From Candidatus Hydrogenedentota bacterium (GTDB lineage: Bacteria > Hydrogenedentota > Hydrogenedentia > Hydrogenedentales > SLHB01), in assembly GCA_034408725.1 (NCBI GenBank), contig JAWXCN010000118.1:1-12125 (forward strand): a DNA stretch of 12,125 nt. The letters run 5' to 3'. The notes beneath the pieces were generated by a model, which was given only the letters and a program-made list of their open reading frames with translations, had not been told where the DNA came from and searched no databases. This document shows, one piece after another, positions 647 to 12,125 of the stretch. The position numbers and the translations under genes were made by a program. Numbering within the stretch: the stretch's first letter is position 1; the number at the start of each line of letters is the position of its first letter.

Positions 647-647
<1 letters not shown>
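3..647 (+). CDS. Four-helix-bundle protein with C-terminal 'suffix' domain (TIGR02436/TIGR04258-like, Avd/IVS-protein fold), 5' truncated by the window, with a repeat-encoded Gly/Ser/Pro insertion
   Basis: Translation has (Q)[16 protein letters not shown]...[30 protein letters not shown], typical of four-helix-bundle proteins, and C-terminal [11 protein letters not shown]...LLDRQI...[11 protein letters not shown], typical of the suffix domain. ATG at 3 is probably internal. Stop TAA 645-647 overlaps the hsdR ATG. Confidence 0.85.
267..487 (+). repeat. Intragenic 9-bp-period tandem array (16x GTGGAC) followed by an inverted block (4x GTCCAC)
   Basis: GTGGAC at 277, 292, 301, 310, 319, 328, 343, 352, 361, 370, 385, 394, 403, 412, 421, 430, plus GTGGCC at 268. 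Units (A/G)GTGGAC(AG/GT/CG) are interrupted by 6-bp (A/G)AAAAG linkers at 285, 336 and 378, with a 42-bp higher-order duplication (336-377 vs 378-419). Reverse-complement GTCCAC at 455, 464, 473, 482, also 9-bp period. Confidence 0.97.
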
Positions 648-3784
<3,137 letters not shown>

Positions 3785-3917: not shown

Positions 3918-5195
3918 TTATGTATTGGGCGAGCTTGTTGCACTGTCCATCAACGACCCAAGACTACGGTTGAAACGGAAACCCATCCTCCGGGAAACCG
4001 GTGGGTGGGGGAGCGGCGGGTTTGGCGGCTTGTTTCGGCATATTGCGCTGCGCCGCGGGTGTTGGCCGGGATGGGACGTAGATTTCGTCGTACCATTCGA
4101 GCCAACGTTCGCGTTGGAGTCCGCGGGCAGGCCGGTGATGGTGGCGAGCGCGTCGCTCGCCGTTTCGACGAGGCCGGTGCGCGCGCGCACGAGACCAATC
4201 AGGAATTCGATGGTTTCTCCGGTGCCGACGTAAGCGAGCATGCGGATGGCGATTTTGCGGGCCGAGGTGTCGGGTTCGGTGCGACCCGCGGCCGCTTCGG
4301 TGATGGCGGCGCGGGCTTCGTCCCCGCCGATCCGGGCGAGGCCGCGGTAGGATGCCGTGCGCATGTAGACCTGGGGGTGGGCCGTCATGCGGATGTATTC
4401 CCGCAGAAGGCTTTGGTCGTCGATGCCGGCGAGCGCGTCGGCGCAATAGTAGCCGAGGACCATGTCGTCACCCCAGACCTGGGCCGCGAGCAGCGCGCCG
4501 GCGCGCGTGCTTCCGATGCGGCCAAGGCAGTACGCTATCGTCATTTTTTCGATACGAAGGGCGCCGGGAGAATGGAAGCGCGCAATCAGGGGAGGTTCCA
4601 ATTCATTCTTGAGAGTGGGGAGAGTCGCATCGAGTGGCTGCGCCAAGGCCAGGTCGCCCCACCCCAGCACCGCGACCACTGCGTCGGCCAGGGCTTCCCC
4701 GGGAATATTTCCCAGCGCCTGATGGGCCGAGCTCTGGACCAGCGGATCGGCGTCCGCCAGCGCGATGATTAGTGGTGGAATTGCGTCGGGAGTGCCCATT
4801 GCCGACAAGCCTTCAACGGCCCGCATCCGGATGACCGGATCGGCCGACGCGAGCATTTGCTCAAGGGGCGCGGTAGCCGAATTTACATCGAGTAATAATG
4901 GTTTGAAGCGCGGAGGCATGGGAGTGTCTTGTAAGCCATTTTCTGGAAATAATCGGTCCAATTCTTCCAGCGTGGGAGGCCCGAGGGGTTGGAAATCGCT
5001 CGATGGAGCGGGAATGGTGTTTTGGTCCGAGGGTAGGACTGGCGCGCGAGGCACGGGAATCGATGCTGTTTCTTCACTTGAAACGTTCGGCACGGCATTG
5101 TTCGCGCTACACACGAGCACGGTAATGAAACATGCGAGAACACGCGAGAAACAGGGGGTTTGATGCGCAAGAATATGGGTATTGCCCGATTGCAT
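3918..5195 (-). CDS. Secreted or membrane-anchored HEAT (PBS-lyase-like) repeat protein; probable 1-nt frameshift near 4113, true stop likely at 3964
   Basis: Repeated HEAT motifs (LASADPVIRMRAVEGL, ALADADPLVQSSAHQALGNI, IAYCLGRIG, SYRGLARIG, IRMLAYVG), an N-terminal hydrophobic stretch (RVLACFITVLVCSA) and a Pro-rich linker. Start taken at ATG 5195 (MQSG); 5249 is an alternative. After ALATITGLPADSN the sensible continuation RERWLEWYDEIY lies in another frame ending at TAG 3964-3966. Confidence 0.8.
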   Translation of the reverse strand: MQSGNTHILAHQTPCFSRVLACFITVLVCSANNAVPNVSSEETASIPVPRAPVLPSDQNTIPAPSSDFQPLGPPTLEELDRLFPENGLQDTPMPPRFKPLLLDVNSATAPLEQMLASADPVIRMRAVEGLSAMGTPDAIPPLIIALADADPLVQSSAHQALGNIPGEALADAVVAVLGWGDLALAQPLDATLPTLKNELEPPLIARFHSPGALRIEKMTIAYCLGRIGSTRAGALLAAQVWGDDMVLGYYCADALAGIDDQSLLREYIRMTAHPQVYMRTASYRGLARIGGDEARAAITEAAAGRTEPDTSARKIAIRMLAYVGTGETIEFLIGLVRARTGLVETASDALATITGLPADSNANVGSNGTTKSTSHPGQHPRRSAICRNKPPNPPLPHPPVSRRMGFRFNRSLGSLMDSATSSPNT

Positions 5196-5270
5196 GCAAT
5201 GAGTTTGACGGAGTTCGCGCTCATTGTCAAAGTGAAAAAAATGAGACAATCGATGGATTAGGGTATGGAA

Positions 5271-5298
5271 TAGACTTTTACTGGATTTATGTTATAAT
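5271..5298 (+). promoter_or_regulatory. Sigma70-type promoter with extended -10, driving the small RNA
   Basis: -35 TAGACT 5271-5276, 16-bp spacer, TG at 5290-5291 and perfect TATAAT 5293-5298; predicted start near 5305. Confidence 0.7.
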
Positions 5299-5304
5299 AG
5301 TGCG

Positions 5305-5421
5305 ACGGAGGGGTGCCTTCCCCCAGGTAGCCCCTTCGGGTACAGTCAGCAATGACTGGTTCCCACCACCGGCGAGTGCGTCGAAGGCAGTTCCCCCGCT
5401 GCCCGCACTCGCCTCTTTTTT
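5305..5421 (+). ncRNA. Candidate structured small RNA or attenuator (~115 nt), family unassigned
   Basis: Lies between a strong promoter and a terminator. Contains CC-TTCG-GG (5333-5340), CAGTCA-GCAA-TGACTG (5343-5358, GNRA loop) and long-range pairing of 5306-5320 with 5383-5398. No credible coding frame. Confidence 0.6.
5371..5421 (+). terminator. Intrinsic terminator
   Basis: GGCGAGTGCG (5371-5380) / CGCACTCGCC (5404-5413) perfect 10-bp stem, inner GGCAG (5386-5390) / CTGCC (5399-5403), followed by TCTTTTTT (5414-5421). Confidence 0.75.
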
Positions 5422-5483
5422 GCGTCGAAAGGGTTTAGATGTTGGCGGGAGGTTAACTGCTGACATGGTATGGTAATGGTCTA

Positions 5484-5512
5484 TTGACTTTCTAGTTTCG
5501 CTTCTGTATACT
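5484..5512 (+). promoter_or_regulatory. Sigma70-type promoter for the isomerase-like gene
   Basis: TTGACT 5484-5489, 17-bp spacer, TATACT 5507-5512. Implies a ~165-nt leader before RBS AGGAGA 5672-5677 and ATG 5683. Confidence 0.7.
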
Positions 5513-5682
5513 TTGGCCACGACCGCGCTTATCTGAATCAATTCTAACATTAGCGCGCACAAGACCTTGCACCTTGCGGGCACATCAGGAAATCACCCCT
5601 GACGAATGAGCGGGGCGGAGGTGTCCCTATAGGGGATGATGTCGCAACGCTCGTGCAAATGCGGAAACTCTAGGAGATTTCA

Positions 5683-6663
5683 ATGGCTTTACGATTGTCA
5701 ACGTCCCTGGACGTGTTTAACTCGTCCCCGGATCGTTTTTGTCCGCAGGGGTTTAGGGACCCATTGCGGCCACAGGAAAAAATAGCGCTTGCCGCGAAGA
5801 TCAAGGGCATCAAAGCGATTGAGGTTAGCCAGAAGGACATAACGCCCGACTTTCCGGTGAAAGAGTTGAAGCGTATCCTCAAGGACTACAACCTTTTATC
5901 GTCCGGCGTAGTGGCGGATTTATCCGCCGACCGCAGGTTTGCCTGGGGCGCGTTTGGCCACCAGCATCCCAAAACGCGAAACGCGGCGATTGACGAAGGG
6001 CGCAAGGCAGTAGACATGGCGCGCCACCTCGCCGCTACCGAAGTGACACTGAAATTATACAGTGACGGGTTTGACTACCCGTTTCATATTGATTACACCA
6101 CGCACTGGAACACGGTCATTTCGTCGATTAAGACCATTGCGAAATACGCTTCGCCGGATATCAATGTGGCGATTGCGTATAAACCTCGCGAGCCGCGCAA
6201 GTTCGCGACCGTTTCGAGCGTTGGGAAGGCGTTGTCGTTGTGCCAGGAAATCGCGATGAAAAACGTGGGCGTGGCACTCAACTTTTCGCACGCGCTGATG
6301 GCGGGCGAAACCCCCGCGGAGTCCATAGCGTTTCTCACACGCGCGAATAAGCTGTTCACCGTATATTTCGCCGACAACTACCGTATGTGGGACGACATGA
6401 TGCTGCCGGGAAGCATTCACATGTGGGAACTGTTGGAAGCATTGTTCTATCTGAAGACGACGAAGTTCAAAGGGTGGAGCACGATAGACATGTTGCCGCA
6501 GCGTTTGGATCCTGCCCAGGCTTGCCAGATAGCGATAGGCAATATGTCGATCTTCTGGAAGAAGCTCGAGAAGCTGGACCCGAACGAGTTGCGTAAAGCG
6601 CAGAAGACATTGGATGCCGTCGAAAGCCAGCGGATTATCCGTAGAATTATGTTGCAGGGATAA
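5683..6663 (+). CDS. Xylose/rhamnose-isomerase-like TIM-barrel protein (sugar isomerase/epimerase, AP_endonuc_2 clan) with a degenerate active site
   Basis: 326 aa, good RBS. Family-like motifs DRF..G, GAF...P..R..AI, DGFDYPF, YKPREPR, FSHAL, DNYRMWDD, DMLP, and a C-terminal L..AQ...DA helix. Confidence 0.85.
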   Translation: MALRLSTSLDVFNSSPDRFCPQGFRDPLRPQEKIALAAKIKGIKAIEVSQKDITPDFPVKELKRILKDYNLLSSGVVADLSADRRFAWGAFGHQHPKTRNAAIDEGRKAVDMARHLAATEVTLKLYSDGFDYPFHIDYTTHWNTVISSIKTIAKYASPDINVAIAYKPREPRKFATVSSVGKALSLCQEIAMKNVGVALNFSHALMAGETPAESIAFLTRANKLFTVYFADNYRMWDDMMLPGSIHMWELLEALFYLKTTKFKGWSTIDMLPQRLDPAQACQIAIGNMSIFWKKLEKLDPNELRKAQKTLDAVESQRIIRRIMLQG

Positions 6664-6766: not shown

Positions 6767-8431
6767 TTGCATACCATTCGTGTAGAAGGAAATACCCAGG
6801 GACTCAGCGCGCTTCCCCTGCGCCGCCTGGACCGGTTGGCGACCCGCAAGACCCCGGCCTCGGGGATTATCAGCCCGGAATTCGCCCGCGCACTCACCGA
6901 AACCTCGTTGGAAATCAAGCGGCAAGTCGCCGTCCTCATTGATCGGCGGGGCCAAACGCGGGAAGTCATCGTCGGTGATGCGCGCTCTGTGCTGCTTCCG
7001 GACCTGCGCGAATACCGCCGCGGCCGGGACCGGTTAAGTGGGTTGCGTCTTATACACACCCACCTCAATGGCGAACCGCTGACGGACGATGACCTCACCG
7101 ATCTTGCGGTGCTTCGACTCGACCTGATTGCTGCGATTGAAGTGCTTGAAGACGGGTTGCCGGGCCGGGTATTTACGGCGCACCTCCTGCCCAACAATGA
7201 AGCCGGCCGCGCGTGGGAACTGGAAACCCACCGTTCGGTGCATGAACTACCCGAAGACTTCCCCCCGATGATTGAAGCGCTCGAGGCGGAATTCGCGCGC
7301 GTGCGCCAGGCGCGCACGGTGGGTGACAACCGGGACCGCGCGATTCTCGTTCACGTGTCGCAGCAGCGTCTGACGGATGCCGAAGATTCGATGCAGGAGC
7401 TCAAAGATTTATCGCGCGCGGCTGGAATTGATTGTGTACATGCAATCGTTCAGCGGCGCCCGGTCGACCCGCGGTTTGTGATGGGGCGCGGAAAATTGCA
7501 GGACGCGGTCATCAAAGCCATGCAATTGGGCGCGGAAGCGATTGTGTTTGATCAGAATCTCACGCCGGCCCAAGTGAACGCGCTCTCGGAATTTACGGAC
7601 CTCAAGGTATTGGATCGCACCCAGGTCATTCTCGACATCTTCGCGCAACGCGCGCAAACCCGGGAAGGCAAGATACAGGTGGAGCTTGCGCAACTGCGCT
7701 ATTTATTGCCGCGCCTGGGCAGCAAGCAGACGGCGCTGGCGTTTTCCCGCTTGACCGGTGGCATTGGCGGCAGGGGGCCGGGTGAGACCAAGTTGGAGAT
7801 CGATCGCCGCCGCGCACAGGAACGGGCCGCGATGTTGGAGCGGGAAGTGAAGAAACTTGGTGAGCGCCGCAAGCTGCGCCGTTCCGTGCGGTCCAAGAAG
7901 CAGATTCCAACGGTATCTATCGTGGGATACACGAACGCCGGTAAATCTACGCTCTTAAATCATCTGACCCGCAGCACGGTCGTTGCCGAAGACATTTTGT
8001 TCGCAACCTTGAATCCAGTATCGCGGCGGTTGCGGTTCCCCCAGGATCGCGAAATCATCATTACGGACACCGTCGGGTTCATCCGGAATTTACCAAAGGA
8101 ATTGATGGCGGCGTTTCGCACGACCTTGGAAGAGCTGGGCGAAGCCGACCTGCTGCTGCACGTTATCGATGCGTGCAGCGAAGGTTTTGGGGAACGAAAG
8201 AATGCCGTCGAGCAGGTCATTCAGGAATTGGGGCTGGGCGAGACTCCCGTACTCCTGGTGTTGAACAAGGCGGACCGTTGCGACCCCGTCGAATTGGAAG
8301 GGCTTGCCAGACAGACCGGGGGAATTCCAGTTTCGGCCTTGGATACAAAAACGTTTGGACCGTTAATGGTTAGAATTCAGCGGGCGTTGTGGGACGGGAT
8401 TATAAACGAGCAAGCGCCGGCGTCTTCGTAG
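6767..8431 (+). CDS. hflX: Ribosome-splitting GTPase HflX, long form with N-terminal extension; start TTG 6767 or ATT 6776
   Basis: G1 GYTNAGKS, G2 DILFATL, G3 DTVGF, G4 NKAD, G5 VSA. HflX signatures DRTQVILDIFAQRA...EGKIQVELAQLRY.LPRL and GGIGGRGPGETKLEIDRR. N-terminal GNTQGL...RLIHTH...DDL.DL...RLD extension of long HflX. Confidence 0.96.
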   Translation: MHTIRVEGNTQGLSALPLRRLDRLATRKTPASGIISPEFARALTETSLEIKRQVAVLIDRRGQTREVIVGDARSVLLPDLREYRRGRDRLSGLRLIHTHLNGEPLTDDDLTDLAVLRLDLIAAIEVLEDGLPGRVFTAHLLPNNEAGRAWELETHRSVHELPEDFPPMIEALEAEFARVRQARTVGDNRDRAILVHVSQQRLTDAEDSMQELKDLSRAAGIDCVHAIVQRRPVDPRFVMGRGKLQDAVIKAMQLGAEAIVFDQNLTPAQVNALSEFTDLKVLDRTQVILDIFAQRAQTREGKIQVELAQLRYLLPRLGSKQTALAFSRLTGGIGGRGPGETKLEIDRRRAQERAAMLEREVKKLGERRKLRRSVRSKKQIPTVSIVGYTNAGKSTLLNHLTRSTVVAEDILFATLNPVSRRLRFPQDREIIITDTVGFIRNLPKELMAAFRTTLEELGEADLLLHVIDACSEGFGERKNAVEQVIQELGLGETPVLLVLNKADRCDPVELEGLARQTGGIPVSALDTKTFGPLMVRIQRALWDGIINEQAPASS

Positions 8432-10886
8432 CCGCGTCGAGCACGAAACGAACTTTGCGGGCAAGTGCCTCCGGAGCAAAGGGTTTTGGAAGAAATGAAA
8501 TCCCCTGCTCGAGCACCCCGTGGTGCACAATCGCGTCCTCGGTGTAGCCGGACATGTAAAGCACTTTCAGGTCGCGGTGCTTCATTCGTAGTTGCTCGGC
8601 GAGTTCGCGGCCGCTGATCTTTGGCATCACGACGTCGGTAAGCAGGAGATCAATTGCGCCGTGATAGTTCGCGGCCAAGCCCAACGCGCTTTGGCCGTCG
8701 GATGCCTCGAGCACCGTGTAGCCTCGTTCAATCAAGGTCTGACAGGTGATGGCGCGAACCATTGGTTCATCTTCGACCAGTAGAATCGTTTCATTGCCGC
8801 CTGCCGCGGGCCGTGCTGGCGCGCGGGTTATGTTGGCGGCTTCACCAGAAACGCGCGGCAGATAGATTTTGAATGTCGTGCCGTTACCAGGTTCGCTATA
8901 GACCCAAATGTGGCCGCCAACCTGTTTCACGATGCCGTAGCAAGTGGCCAGGCCGAGCCCAGTGCCTTTGCCGTCTTCCTTTGTCGTGAAGAACGGTTCA
9001 AAGATATGGCGTCGAATTTCTTCCGGCATACCCATGCCCGTATCGCTCATCGCAAGCATGACATAGTCGCCGGGCGTCACGTCGGGATGGTACTTTGCGT
9101 AATCATCATCCAACACGACGTGCTCAATTTCGAGCGTTAGTTTTCCGCCGTCGAGCATGGCGTCACGCGCATTGACTGCAAGATTGACCACCACCTGCTC
9201 GAACTGGCCCGGATCAATACAGACAATCGCCGGGTCCGCCGATGGAAAGGTTACGAGATCGATGTCTTCGCCGATCAACCGGCGCAGCAGTTTTTCCAGA
9301 TTCAGCGTCAACGTGTTGAGGTTAGTATTGCGCGGCTCGACGATTTGTTTGCGCGCAAACGCCAGGAGCTGCCGCGTGAGTTCCGCGGCGCGTTGCGCGG
9401 CATGCGTGACCTGCTCAATCTGCCCACGCACCTTGCTTCCTTCCGGAATGCTTTCGAGGGCGAAGTCGCAGTAGCCCATGATCGCCGTCAACAGGTTATT
9501 GAAATCGTGGGCGACACCGCCGGCGAGCCGGCCGATGCCTTCCATCTTCTGCGAGTGCAGGAGCTGTTGTTCGAGAGTTTCGCGTTCCGTGATGTCACGC
9601 GAATTAATCACCGCGCCTTCAATGTCGGGGTCACTCATCATGCTGCGGCCCACGGATTCAAGGGTCTTCCAGGTGCCGTTCTTGTGCATGCACCGAAAGC
9701 GCATGGACCGGGAAAGTTCGGGACTTCGCAACGCCTCGGTGAACGTCTTCAAGATACGGACCCGATCATCGGGATGTACCAGTTCAAAGACGTTTCGTCC
9801 CGTCAGTTCGTTCGGCTGGTATCCGAGAATCCCCGTAATTGAAGGGCTTTCGTAGCGAATCGTGCCGTCGAAATTCAAAACAGTGATCAAGTCCTGGGCG
9901 TTTTCCGTCAGCGCGCGGAAATACCGCTCGTTTCGCGACAGCACCTCTTCCTCGCGTTTGCGATCCGTGATGTCTTGCATGAGACCAATCGTCTCGGTGA
10001 TGAGACCATCCGAGCCGACAACTTCGACGGAATTGTCGTTTATCCACTTCTCATCGCCTAAGCGGGTGCGAATGCGGTATTCGCGCTGCCAATTGCGCAC
10101 TGCTCCACCCGCTATAAGCCGGCCAATTTCGTCTACGGGGGTGCCCGCCAGCGGTCCGACATAGCGGGTTTCGTCCGGCAGGCTTTGCAGTCGATCAAAG
10201 GTGAGTTCGTCCGGGGTGAATCCGGTCAGCCGATAAATGTGATCATCGTAGAACGTGTACGACTTGGTTGCCCAATTGATGCGATAGGGGATCGCACCTG
10301 CCTGCGTGATCGCGGCACGATAGACGTTATCCTGTTCGATCAATGCGTCGGCGAGATGGCGCCGGTGAACGGCCTCGGCAACCAACCCCTGTTGCTCGTG
10401 CAGCAACCGGGATTCAGCAGTAATCGTCTCAAGCAGGGCGAAATACAGGCTGGACAGCAACAACAGCATGCCGAGCACAACACCCACCCAGCGCGCCGTG
10501 TCGTGGAACGCCCCAGCGTCACCAAGGATTGGCCACGAATTGATGGCGGAGATATCATCCGTTACTCCAAGCCCCTGGGAACCGATCAGAAAAAACGTGG
10601 AAGCCAGCATCATGCGCTTCAAAGAGCGAGCGCCGCGGATGCGCGCCACGAGGTAGACCCCTGGGGCGAGGACGACACAGATTCCGAGGGTGGTGATTAG
10701 GCCGACGATTATGTTGTGGCCCGGCCAAACACCCTTAAGTATGTGGGCGAAGACTTCAATCACAAAAGCGATAAATAGAACCCCGAACACACCCATGCCC
10801 GAACGCGACTTTCCGATTGCGACCGCACTGTCCGAATGCGTGCCGCTGATCCTGGCAAAGCTGTTATGTGCTGCGAGCGTGCTCAT
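8400..10886 (-). CDS. Membrane-anchored PAS-PAS hybrid sensor histidine kinase/response regulator (CckA-like architecture)
   Basis: 828 aa. About four N-terminal hydrophobic segments, two PAS/PAC domains (ending QDITDRK and RDITER), H-box [12 protein letters not shown]-box [11 protein letters not shown]1 DTGMGM, F-box FEPFFTTK, G2 GTGLGL, receiver ILLVEDE...[10 protein letters not shown]...KPF. 3' end overlaps hflX by 32 bp. Confidence 0.95.
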
Positions 10887-11042
10887 GAATGCTCTATTTG
10901 CCTTTCGGTTTTGCTGACCGACGAAAGGAAGGTCCTTTTCGGACTTACTTGGGGAATGGTGGCTCAGACGTGTGGCTCACCGCAAAGGCGCATGGTCTTG
11001 GATTTACTCATTCGGGTATCTCCTGCTAATACCGCTTACACC

Positions 11043-11060
11043 GTAATTGTATACAATTAC
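11043..11060. promoter_or_regulatory. Perfect 18-bp palindrome, candidate transcription-factor operator
   Basis: GTAATTGTA|TACAATTAC in the AT-rich region between the divergent kinase and TPR genes. Confidence 0.55.
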
Positions 11061-11292
11061 TCAAGACAAACGCTATTTTGGCATAAAATACTTATTTAGT
11101 CAATTAAAAATATTAATGGAAATATTGTATATACGGTCATTACGGTGTATACGATATAGATTTTAATCTAAATCATTGAAGCAGCATGTTTTAGAGCAAA
11201 AAGCACCCCTGCGCCATCTTCCCTATTCAATTGGAATTCTTCGGAGGCGCATGTGTAGTATCCCGGCAAGCATGTTCCGTTCTTTCAACATA

Positions 11293-12125
11293 ATGAGGCC
11301 CATGATCAACTTACGTCTCCTGTTTCTGTTTGCGTTTTCGGTTGTTGCGCTGGTCTACGGACAAGATTTCGGCGTGTCGGGTATCAAGGCGAACGTTGAA
11401 GAGGCATTTCGGGCGCGCCAGGCCAGCGCCGATGCATTCGCGCAAGGAAACGCGGAGGAGGGACAGAGCCAGGCCCAGCGGTCAGCGTCCCTGTTCCGCG
11501 AGGCGCGTGCGAGCTACGAGTCTATGCGGGCCGATGAATCCGTGGATGTTGGAGTGTTGGTTGACTATGCCGGCCTGCTCAACGAGATGGAAGACTACGA
11601 TCTTGCCGAGAACGCATTGCTGCGCGCCGCCGCGATTGCCCCTGGCGATGCCGCGGTCTGGCTCAAACTGGGCCAGACGCAAGCCGCGCTAGGACCTGCA
11701 AGCGAGTCGCGAGCGATCCGATCGCTGCGTAGGGCGGCGGACATCGAACCCAGCTCCCAATCGACGGTCGAAGCGCATGCGTCGCTCGGCGCGTTGTACC
11801 AGCAGGCCGGTTTGTATGAGTTCGCGCGCGAAGCGTTCAACGAAGCATTAGAGTTGGACCCAGACCATATTGGTTCGCGGTTAACCATTGCATCATTGGA
11901 CGCGCGCGAGGGCAAAATGGTGGAAGCTGAGGCAGCCTTCGATTCGATTGAAGCGTTATCGCCCGAGCATGGGGGATACATCAAGCGGACCCTGGGCCCT
12001 TCACTGGATGAATTTGCGGCGTCGCGCCGTTGGTTGCCGGATACGGCCGACGCGCATTTTGCGTATGCCAAGCTGCTTGTGCGCGTGGATCGCATTGAAG
12101 ACAGCGTTTGGCCGCTGCTTCGATC
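11293..12125 (+). CDS. Secreted tetratricopeptide-repeat (TPR) protein, 3' truncated by the window
   Basis: Open frame to the window end, absent from the ORF track. MRPMINLRLLFLFAFSVVALVYGQ signal-like N-terminus, then TPR motifs YAGLLNEMEDYDLAENALLRAAAIAPGD, AVWLKLGQTQ...AIRSLRRAADIEP, AHASLGALYQQAGLYEFAREAFNEALELDPDH and AHFAYAKLL. Alternative in-frame ATGs at 11251, 11272 and 11302. Confidence 0.88.
   Translation, partial: MRPMINLRLLFLFAFSVVALVYGQDFGVSGIKANVEEAFRARQASADAFAQGNAEEGQSQAQRSASLFREARASYESMRADESVDVGVLVDYAGLLNEMEDYDLAENALLRAAAIAPGDAAVWLKLGQTQAALGPASESRAIRSLRRAADIEPSSQSTVEAHASLGALYQQAGLYEFAREAFNEALELDPDHIGSRLTIASLDAREGKMVEAEAAFDSIEALSPEHGGYIKRTLGPSLDEFAASRRWLPDTADAHFAYAKLLVRVDRIEDSVWPLLR

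Follow-up and report, generated by a model that had tools for sequence, protein, structure and literature searches.

The stretch of DNA analysed here (hereafter the window) comprises 12,125 nucleotides (nt) of contig JAWXCN010000118.1, from the assembly GCA_034408725.1 of a Candidatus Hydrogenedentota bacterium. Judged from its sequence and from its conservation, the segment from 5299 to 5421 on the forward (+) strand is a stand-alone gene for a small non-coding RNA of ~120 nt, with its own promoter and intrinsic terminator. The RNA family is new; the kind of element to which it is assigned, a small RNA (sRNA) that carries C-rich motifs and is controlled by an extracytoplasmic function (ECF) sigma factor, is already known. 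We propose, with a probability of about 0.6, that it is an independent trans-acting sRNA of the UCCC class, switched on under oxidative or thiol stress to repress other mRNAs. Two of the traits by which that class is recognized were found, namely a stand-alone gene with promoter and terminator, and at least two conserved unpaired C-rich motifs.

The covariance model of the family, R1, matched the window over the full length of the model (positions 1-123 of 123, 117.1 bits) at 5299-5421 (+), and the RNA is single-copy in its own genome, a 5.17-Mb assembly that is 92% complete. The -35 element GGAATA (5267-5272, +) belongs to a conserved promoter of the GGAAT-N18/19-GTT class, and in the -10 region (5290-5298, +) the TGTT at 5290-5293 is found family-wide. 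From the modal spacing of 7 nt between GTT and the model start, the 5′ end of the RNA is predicted to lie at ~5299-5305. All further elements are on the same strand. Hairpin 1 (5307-5337) consists of a stem of variable sequence and a conserved loop with C-rich patch 1 (TTCCCCC, 5318-5324), and hairpin 2 (5343-5358) is capped by the GNRA tetraloop GCAA (5349-5352). The single-stranded linker GUUCCCACCACC (5359-5370) constitutes C-rich patch 2. The terminator hairpin (5371-5413) is GC-rich and two-tiered, with an outer stem of 10 bp and an inner stem of 6 bp separated by an internal loop, and its terminal loop displays C-rich patch 3 (TTCCCCC, 5391-5397). The U-tract of the terminator, UCUUUUUU at 5414-5421, was read directly from the sequence, and a T-rich run follows the terminator hairpin in every aligned homologue. 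The + strand folded with -61 kcal/mol (z -5.4; 0/200 shuffles were as good), whereas a z of only -2.0 was obtained for the - strand.

Much of this anatomy had been noticed in an earlier, sequence-only reading of the same DNA. Its assignment of the + strand, its GCAA-loop hairpin, its terminator stem with a U tract, and the double occurrence of TTCCCCC, at 5318 and 5391, were all borne out. The extended -10 promoter that it described is present as TGTTATAAT at 5290-5298, with a -35-like TAGACT 16 nt upstream, but this sigma-70-like TATAAT box is restricted to the genus of the window, and the promoter shared by the whole family is GGAATA plus YGTT. The UUCG tetraloop hairpin did not survive, since both the minimum free energy (MFE) structure and the family consensus place this stretch in the 3′ arm of hairpin 1, and CCCCTTCGGG is found in that genus only. 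The repeat of TGCGTCGAA does occur at 5377 and 5421, but the second copy lies beyond the U-tract, where even relatives of the same genus differ.

The predicted three-hairpin structure is strongly supported by covariation. In an alignment of 76 homologues, 91.9% of 2488 cells were paired, compared with 82.2% in shuffles, and double-sided changes were observed at 19 of the 33 pairs (288 cells versus 88 expected), counts that were made on a model-fitted alignment and are hence biased towards the structure. None of 500 shuffles reached any of five structure measures, and in slid controls 24-43% of the cells were paired. In an alignment-free control, in which each 5′ segment was folded singly, 70 of the 76 sequences left the C-run unpaired within a hairpin loop (mean z -3.5). 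The comparison of homologues for covariation that had been proposed with the earlier reading returned a conserved fold. In hairpin 1, double-sided changes were detected at all 11 modelled pairs. Hairpin 2 is paired in 98.9% of the cells, with compensatory changes at three of its six pairs and invariance at the other three, and its loop is of the GNRA type in 63/76 homologues. The terminator is present in all 76; 98% of its cells are paired, seven of its ten outer pairs are invariant, and its inner stem covaries. The mean pairwise identity is 44% for the 5′ end and hairpin 1, versus 85% for the 3′ domain.

All three C-rich motifs are unpaired in the consensus structure. Patch 1, in loop 1, reads (U/C)UCCCCC, and contains CCCC in 76/76 and CCCCC in 72/76 sequences. 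The linker that forms patch 2 is exact in 51/76, with a mean pairwise identity of 92%; it is mostly unpaired in the MFE structure of the window, where 5362-5364 pair with 5338-5340, and wholly unpaired in the consensus. Patch 3, in loop 3, reads UCCCCC or CCCCCC, with CCCCC in 76/76.

The RNA matched no catalogued family. In Rfam 15 there were no matches at the gathering score for the whole window and none at E≤10 for 5150-5700, and ARAGORN found no tRNA or transfer-messenger RNA. The signal recognition particle RNA (G000:C247, 55.2 bits) and the 6S RNA (G000:C106, 82.1 bits) are located elsewhere in its own genome (G000), so that the RNA cannot be a diverged version of one of them. A full-text search of a limited literature collection gave no paper on regulatory RNAs of Hydrogenedentota and no description of this RNA; together with the Rfam result, this agrees with the earlier view of it as undescribed. 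To our knowledge, the phylum is known solely from metagenome-assembled genomes.

Homologues were collected in several ways. By blastn, the RNA was found in 36 of 41 sample genomes (G000 and 40 relatives), with 79-92% identity over the 3′ 70-110 nt. A pattern scan that covered each species with one genome yielded 88 stretches, of which 80 came as loci; most are labelled Candidatus Hydrogenedentota or Hydrogenedentales, and some bear other labels of metagenome-assembled genomes on contigs identical to those of relatives. R1 was built from 38 sequences, with the helix of hairpin 1 given by hand followed by re-alignment; RNAalifold on a MAFFT alignment had missed this hairpin owing to misalignment. 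Full-length matches to R1 (84-127 bits) were obtained in 76 distinct loci from 83 sources, and the 76-sequence set used throughout leaves out L039, which a contig end truncates, the weak partial matches in L054 and L065, and 33 duplicate loci. In total, R1 matched 88 of 135 Hydrogenedentota genomes, usually with one copy, in nine families and, weakly, in a tenth (f11). By family, the matches were 48/53 in f1, 12/14 in f3, 11/15 in f5, 6/6 in f10, 4/4 in f8, 2/2 in f4, and 1/1 each in f2, f7 and f9. The RNA is nearly missing from f11 (1/23), and none of the 10 genomes of f13 had an R1 match. The sole match in f11 (G054:C118:23419-23535; 31.5 bits, E 1.7e-4) extends over the full model length and may be a diverged homologue. 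Three copies are present in G109 and two each, on different contigs, in G006, G023 and G030, and tandem copies ~100 nt apart were observed at G126:C309:4007-4361 and G127:C4:39352-39701; the extra copies are sibling sRNAs in some lineages.

Seven pattern matches outside the phylum (L043, L069, L072, L082, L087, L102 and L110) gave no R1 match and were taken as chance. They come from Streptomyces, Terrimesophilobacter, Mycolicibacterium, a haloarchaeon, Didemnitutus, one deltaproteobacterial source and one further bacterium. The weak partial R1 matches in Streptomyces (L054) and Kineococcus (L065) were likewise attributed to chance. Actinobacterial records account for four of the seven no-match stretches and for both weak partial matches.

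The promoter links the RNA to stress genes. In its relaxed form, GGAATA-N16/17-YGTT precedes the RNA at a constant spacing in 63/76 homologues, at a modal 7 nt before the model start, and the strict form, GGAAT-N18/19-GTT, is present in 57/76. Consensus sequences of this form are described for two actinobacterial ECF sigma factors, SigR of Streptomyces (GGAAT-N18-GTT; PMC2375139) and SigH of Corynebacterium (GGAAT-N18-19-GTT; PMC10012870), and the latter source gives GGAATA-N17-GTT at the SigH promoters of trxB1 and mshC (PMC10012870). By its motif, the predicted promoter of the RNA is of the SigH/SigR-type ECF class, a consensus of Actinobacteria carried by a host of another phylum. Thirteen loci are without the relaxed motif: two of these are truncated, and the remaining 11 group together by another, palindrome-containing upstream sequence. 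The motif-less homologues are L016, L055, L062, L075, L081, L093, L099, L116, L117, L049 and L079. In several of them a short palindrome and a T-run lie directly upstream of the RNA (AACGCTC-GGTG-AGCGTT in L016 and L099), which may represent a promoter or operator of another kind, or a terminator lying upstream.

The strict motif was also found, within 300 nt upstream, at 24 of 25 loci of BrxA/B bacilliredoxin orthologues (L245-L269) and at 17 of 30 loci of Fe/Mn superoxide dismutase orthologues (L215-L244), in a test run in 40 relatives. Among the control genes it occurred in 1 of 113 windows (flgH 0/30, flgA 0/30, an ECF sigma gene 0/30, a radical-SAM gene 1/23). In its own genome the bacilliredoxin gene (G000:C176:6179-6694) and the superoxide dismutase gene (G000:C182:60495-61094) are among the motif-bearing intergenic matches, and further single matches precede pirin, sufB (strict scan), a cupin gene and a hydrolase gene. 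Within this one genome the motif is rare, and its counts were not enriched: GGAATA-N16/17-YGTT, scanned strictly, occurs 16 times (5-77 for permuted hexamers), and intergenic GGAAT-N18/19-GTT 52 times, 33 of these with a downstream gene (controls 16-60 and 4-30, respectively). Only the comparison across relatives is informative. Since the motif is common to the RNA and to the bacilliredoxin and superoxide dismutase genes, the RNA belongs to a conserved promoter-defined set together with genes for thiol and superoxide defence.

Two sigma genes were considered as motif-bearing cognates and rejected. The motif is missing upstream of the ZAS-linked sigma gene at C201, and the conserved box of the RpoE-like sigma gene at C113 differs (GGAAC-N17-GTT). 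The latter, an RpoE/SigW-like ECF sigma gene (G000:C113:51250-51825, - strand), overlaps its anti-sigma gene by 4 nt. GGAAC-N17-GTT is present upstream of it in 30/30 orthologues, in 26 of them at 52-56 nt before the start (L143, L270-L299). This gene probably encodes an autoregulated sigma factor of the envelope-stress type and stands apart from the GGAAT-N18/19 class. The presence of a GGAAC box beside a GGAAT class resembles the SigE/SigH pair of Corynebacterium (PMC10012870).

The mechanism that we propose is as follows. A putative SigH/SigR-like ECF sigma factor would switch the RNA on together with the oxidative/thiol-stress regulon. The redundant C-rich patches would then pair in trans, on several mRNAs, with G-rich segments in or close to the ribosome-binding site, and the pairing would block translation or alter mRNA stability, as for LhrC, RsaE/RoxS and 6C. 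Hairpin 1, which varies in sequence, might serve only to display patch 1 and to shield the 5′ end. Pairing would proceed without Hfq or ProQ, and neither protein was found in its own 92%-complete genome.

Several observations weigh against this proposal, and they concern the transcript, the targets, the promoter and the 3′ domain. Nine sequencing runs had small matching shares (0.04-0.07), and four of them were examined, three being RNA libraries and one (X1) probably DNA. Each gave one contig of 151-269 nt, which covered the RNA from 5316, 5318 or 5329 to 5421 with 90-99% likeness and stems from close relatives. Three of the four contigs run beyond 5421 into sequence unlike the window, the contig from X4 extends upstream into the promoter-like TGTTATAAT, and the four contigs give no evidence of transcription, of a discrete transcript or of its ends. 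The contig from X3 jumps from 5421 to 5481-5527, a stretch that thus recurs in a relative. On the side of the promoter, 11 of the 74 homologues with enough upstream sequence are without the GGAAT/GTT motif, and none of 29 sigma-70-family genes and none of three zf-HC2 anti-sigma candidates has the strict motif at a promoter-like position within 450 nt. The covariation counts carry the alignment bias stated above. In addition, the conservation of the 3′ domain, with its 85% identity, invariant stem and GNRA loop, exceeds what a seed plus a terminator would need.

The target search was carried out in its own genome with crude gene calls (4459 genes). With RNAduplex, 643 genes reached -18 kcal/mol or lower, compared with 586 for reversed motifs, and the energies equalled those of the controls. 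Complements of the patches (8-mers) at start sites were found in 20, 14 and 20 genes, versus 22, 14 and 16 with composition-matched controls, which is no enrichment. The candidates with the longest complements were flgA, flgH, PilT/PilB-like ATPases, a radical-SAM enzyme, a sigma-54 activator and an ECF sigma factor. Comparison with relatives disposed of three of these: the match in flgH is a by-product of coding, GGGG or longer stands upstream of flgA in just 6/30 relatives, and the radical-SAM gene has a G-rich Shine-Dalgarno (SD) sequence in just 2/23. The superoxide dismutase, bacilliredoxin and sigma genes have ordinary AAGGAG-type ribosome-binding sites without G-runs. Because highly expressed genes of the regulon use plain AAGGAG, the patches are not simple anti-SD mimics. 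The trans-acting sRNA with C-rich loops directed at G-rich ribosome-binding sites, which the sequence-only reading had offered as one of two possibilities, fits the conserved anatomy, but the target searches found no such mRNA.

The very high conservation of the 3′ domain would suit another reading, according to which the RNA acts mainly via a protein or macromolecular partner, with the 3′ domain as a binding module and the C-rich loops titrating or recruiting an RNA-binding protein, in the manner of CsrB/RsmZ with CsrA. The identity of this domain is 85% across families whose hairpin 1 and FlgH proteins show only 44% and ~50%, respectively; seven of ten outer terminator pairs and three of six hairpin-2 pairs do not vary, the GNRA loop of hairpin 2 is kept in 63/76, the C-rich motif is repeated in two loops, and an mRNA target did not emerge from the searches. 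CsrA is present in its own genome, but it reads GGA motifs, and no bacterial protein that recognizes UUCCCCC loops is known to us. Strong conservation over wide taxa is, moreover, compatible with base-pairing, as in 6C. The same holds for RsaE (PMC2790875). We regard a mainly partner-based function as unlikely. A related reading, in which the RNA does more than pair with mRNAs and in which the GNRA hairpin, the CCCACCACC linker and the invariant two-tier helix showing UUCCCCC make up a folded module for an RNA-binding protein, the ribosome or RNA polymerase, seems to us quite unlikely. If true, the RNA would serve an oxidative-stress response under ECF control as its ribonucleoprotein arm, specific to this phylum and without counterpart among described bacterial RNAs.

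The sequence-only reading had also suggested a riboswitch or attenuator that controls read-through into the isomerase-like gene and hflX downstream. The former (5683-6663, +) encodes a sugar-isomerase-like TIM-barrel protein with an AP_endonuc_2 domain, which among solved structures comes closest to 3ktc, 'xylose isomerase' (E 5e-49); its identity as endonuclease IV was rejected on these grounds. A TIM-barrel gene on the same strand lies downstream of the RNA in 22/38 loci, in several families, and the 5′ end of the RNA (5306-5320) can indeed pair inside the terminator (5383-5398) in the window sequence, with -19.6 kcal/mol; both points would suit a cis-acting leader. Over the 76 homologues, however, this competing pairing had 53.8% of its cells paired, versus 54.1% in shuffles, and a covariation score of 0.137 versus 0.141. 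The test covered this one pairing, and as it was no better than shuffles there is no evidence for a switch or pseudoknot from it. The largest downstream open reading frame (ORF) is convergent in 13/38 loci, in all of which promoter, RNA and terminator are intact (neighbours were counted as the longest ORF of at least 90 amino acids within 1.5 kb on each side). In the window, ~260 nt separate the terminator from the isomerase-like gene, and they include a separate sigma-70-like promoter for that gene outside the RNA (TTGACT-17-TATACT, 5484-5512, +). Synteny is stronger with a divergent HEAT-repeat gene, found upstream of the RNA in 23/37 loci, into which read-through is impossible; in the window this gene (3918-5195, -) encodes a HEAT-repeat protein (Pfam HEAT_2) with a signal-peptide-like N-terminus. 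Finally, no Rfam riboswitch family matches. Together, the convergent downstream ORFs, the intervening promoter and the failed alternative pairing argue against a riboswitch or attenuator, which we consider very unlikely, and the conserved neighbourhood is more simply explained as inherited gene order.

A small protein or a dual-function RNA is extremely improbable. The ATG of hairpin 2, which opens a frame of 28 codons, lies inside the conserved AATGACTG stretch, and an ORF of 114 amino acids exists at 5132-5476. Yet hairpin 1 and the internal loop of the terminator hairpin both contain insertions or deletions of 1-2 nt, which break any frame, the ATG is base-paired and is preceded by no SD-like sequence, the 114-amino-acid frame has no Pfam match, and conservation tracks helices and not codons. 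Among the readings considered, we retain the trans-acting sRNA as the preferred one.

Some further features of the window were recorded. Between the 5484-5512 promoter and the isomerase-like gene there is a leader of ~160 nt (window 5484-5682). The HflX GTPase (6767-8431, +) has an N-terminal extension of ~190 residues, the HflX model covering residues 191-540. At the start of the window, an ORF of 214 amino acids (3-647, +) without a Pfam match overlaps with its stop the start of hsdR, which encodes a type I restriction R subunit with all domains present (647-3784, +). At the other end there are a hybrid PAS histidine kinase with a receiver domain (8400-10886, -) and a TPR protein (11176-12123, +), and the GC content dips to 0.46 in the intergenic region 11001-11500.

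The covariance model defines an RNA family that is present in about two thirds of the Hydrogenedentota species genomes, and the conserved ECF-type motif ties this RNA to bacilliredoxin and superoxide dismutase, which provides an initial outline of the phylum's oxidative-stress regulon. No new regulatory principle is implied. ECF-sigma-dependent sRNAs are known in RybB and MicA (sigma-E) and in GsrN (sigma-T), and their logic is that the sRNA supplies repression to an alternative sigma factor that by itself can do no more than activate. GsrN and the oxidative-stress CcsR RNAs use C-rich loops. The targets and chaperones of RybB, MicA, GsrN and CcsR are known, and none of the four has homology to the RNA described here. 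The SigH/SigR regulons of Actinobacteria resemble the present set in combining GGAAT-N18/19-GTT with thiol- and oxidative-stress genes; they differ in phylum, and our search found no motif-bearing cognate pair of sigma factor and ZAS anti-sigma factor here.

The design matches that of LhrC1-5 of Listeria monocytogenes, which carry three redundant C-rich (UCCC) sites at the same places: one in the loop of the 5′ hairpin (loop A), one in the single strand that links the hairpins and one in the loop of the terminator. LhrC is described as stress-induced, Hfq-independent and blocking the SD sequence of its target (PMC4132741). It is also multicopy in its genome, as the RNA described here is in a few genomes. 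The two differ in that LhrC has two hairpins and a CUCCC...UUUU motif, compared with three hairpins and UUCCCCC / CCCACCACC patches. Furthermore, LhrC belongs to a low-GC Firmicute and to envelope stress under the LisRK two-component system, whereas the present RNA has an ECF-type promoter common to oxidative-stress genes. Neither by sequence nor by Rfam are the two related.

RsaE/RoxS of Staphylococcus and Bacillus is similar in length (~114 nt) and combines a 5′ hairpin with a stable terminator; several of its C-rich motifs are unpaired and bind to ribosome-binding sites, and RsaE is conserved in Staphylococci and Bacillaceae (PMC2790875). It differs in being from another phylum and in having UCCC and not C5 as its motif, and the RNA described here is without an Rfam match. 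RsaE/RoxS is under redox-sensing transcription factors, in place of the ECF sigma-type promoter found here. The 6C or B11 sRNA of Actinobacteria is phylum-wide, pairs through C-runs in hairpin loops with G-rich mRNA, and has no known chaperone; the present RNA matches no Rfam family, 6C included. Taken as a whole, these comparisons suggest that the Hydrogenedentota RNA is another independent case of the three-C-rich-patch design known from Firmicutes and Actinobacteria, and that this design has arisen by convergent evolution.

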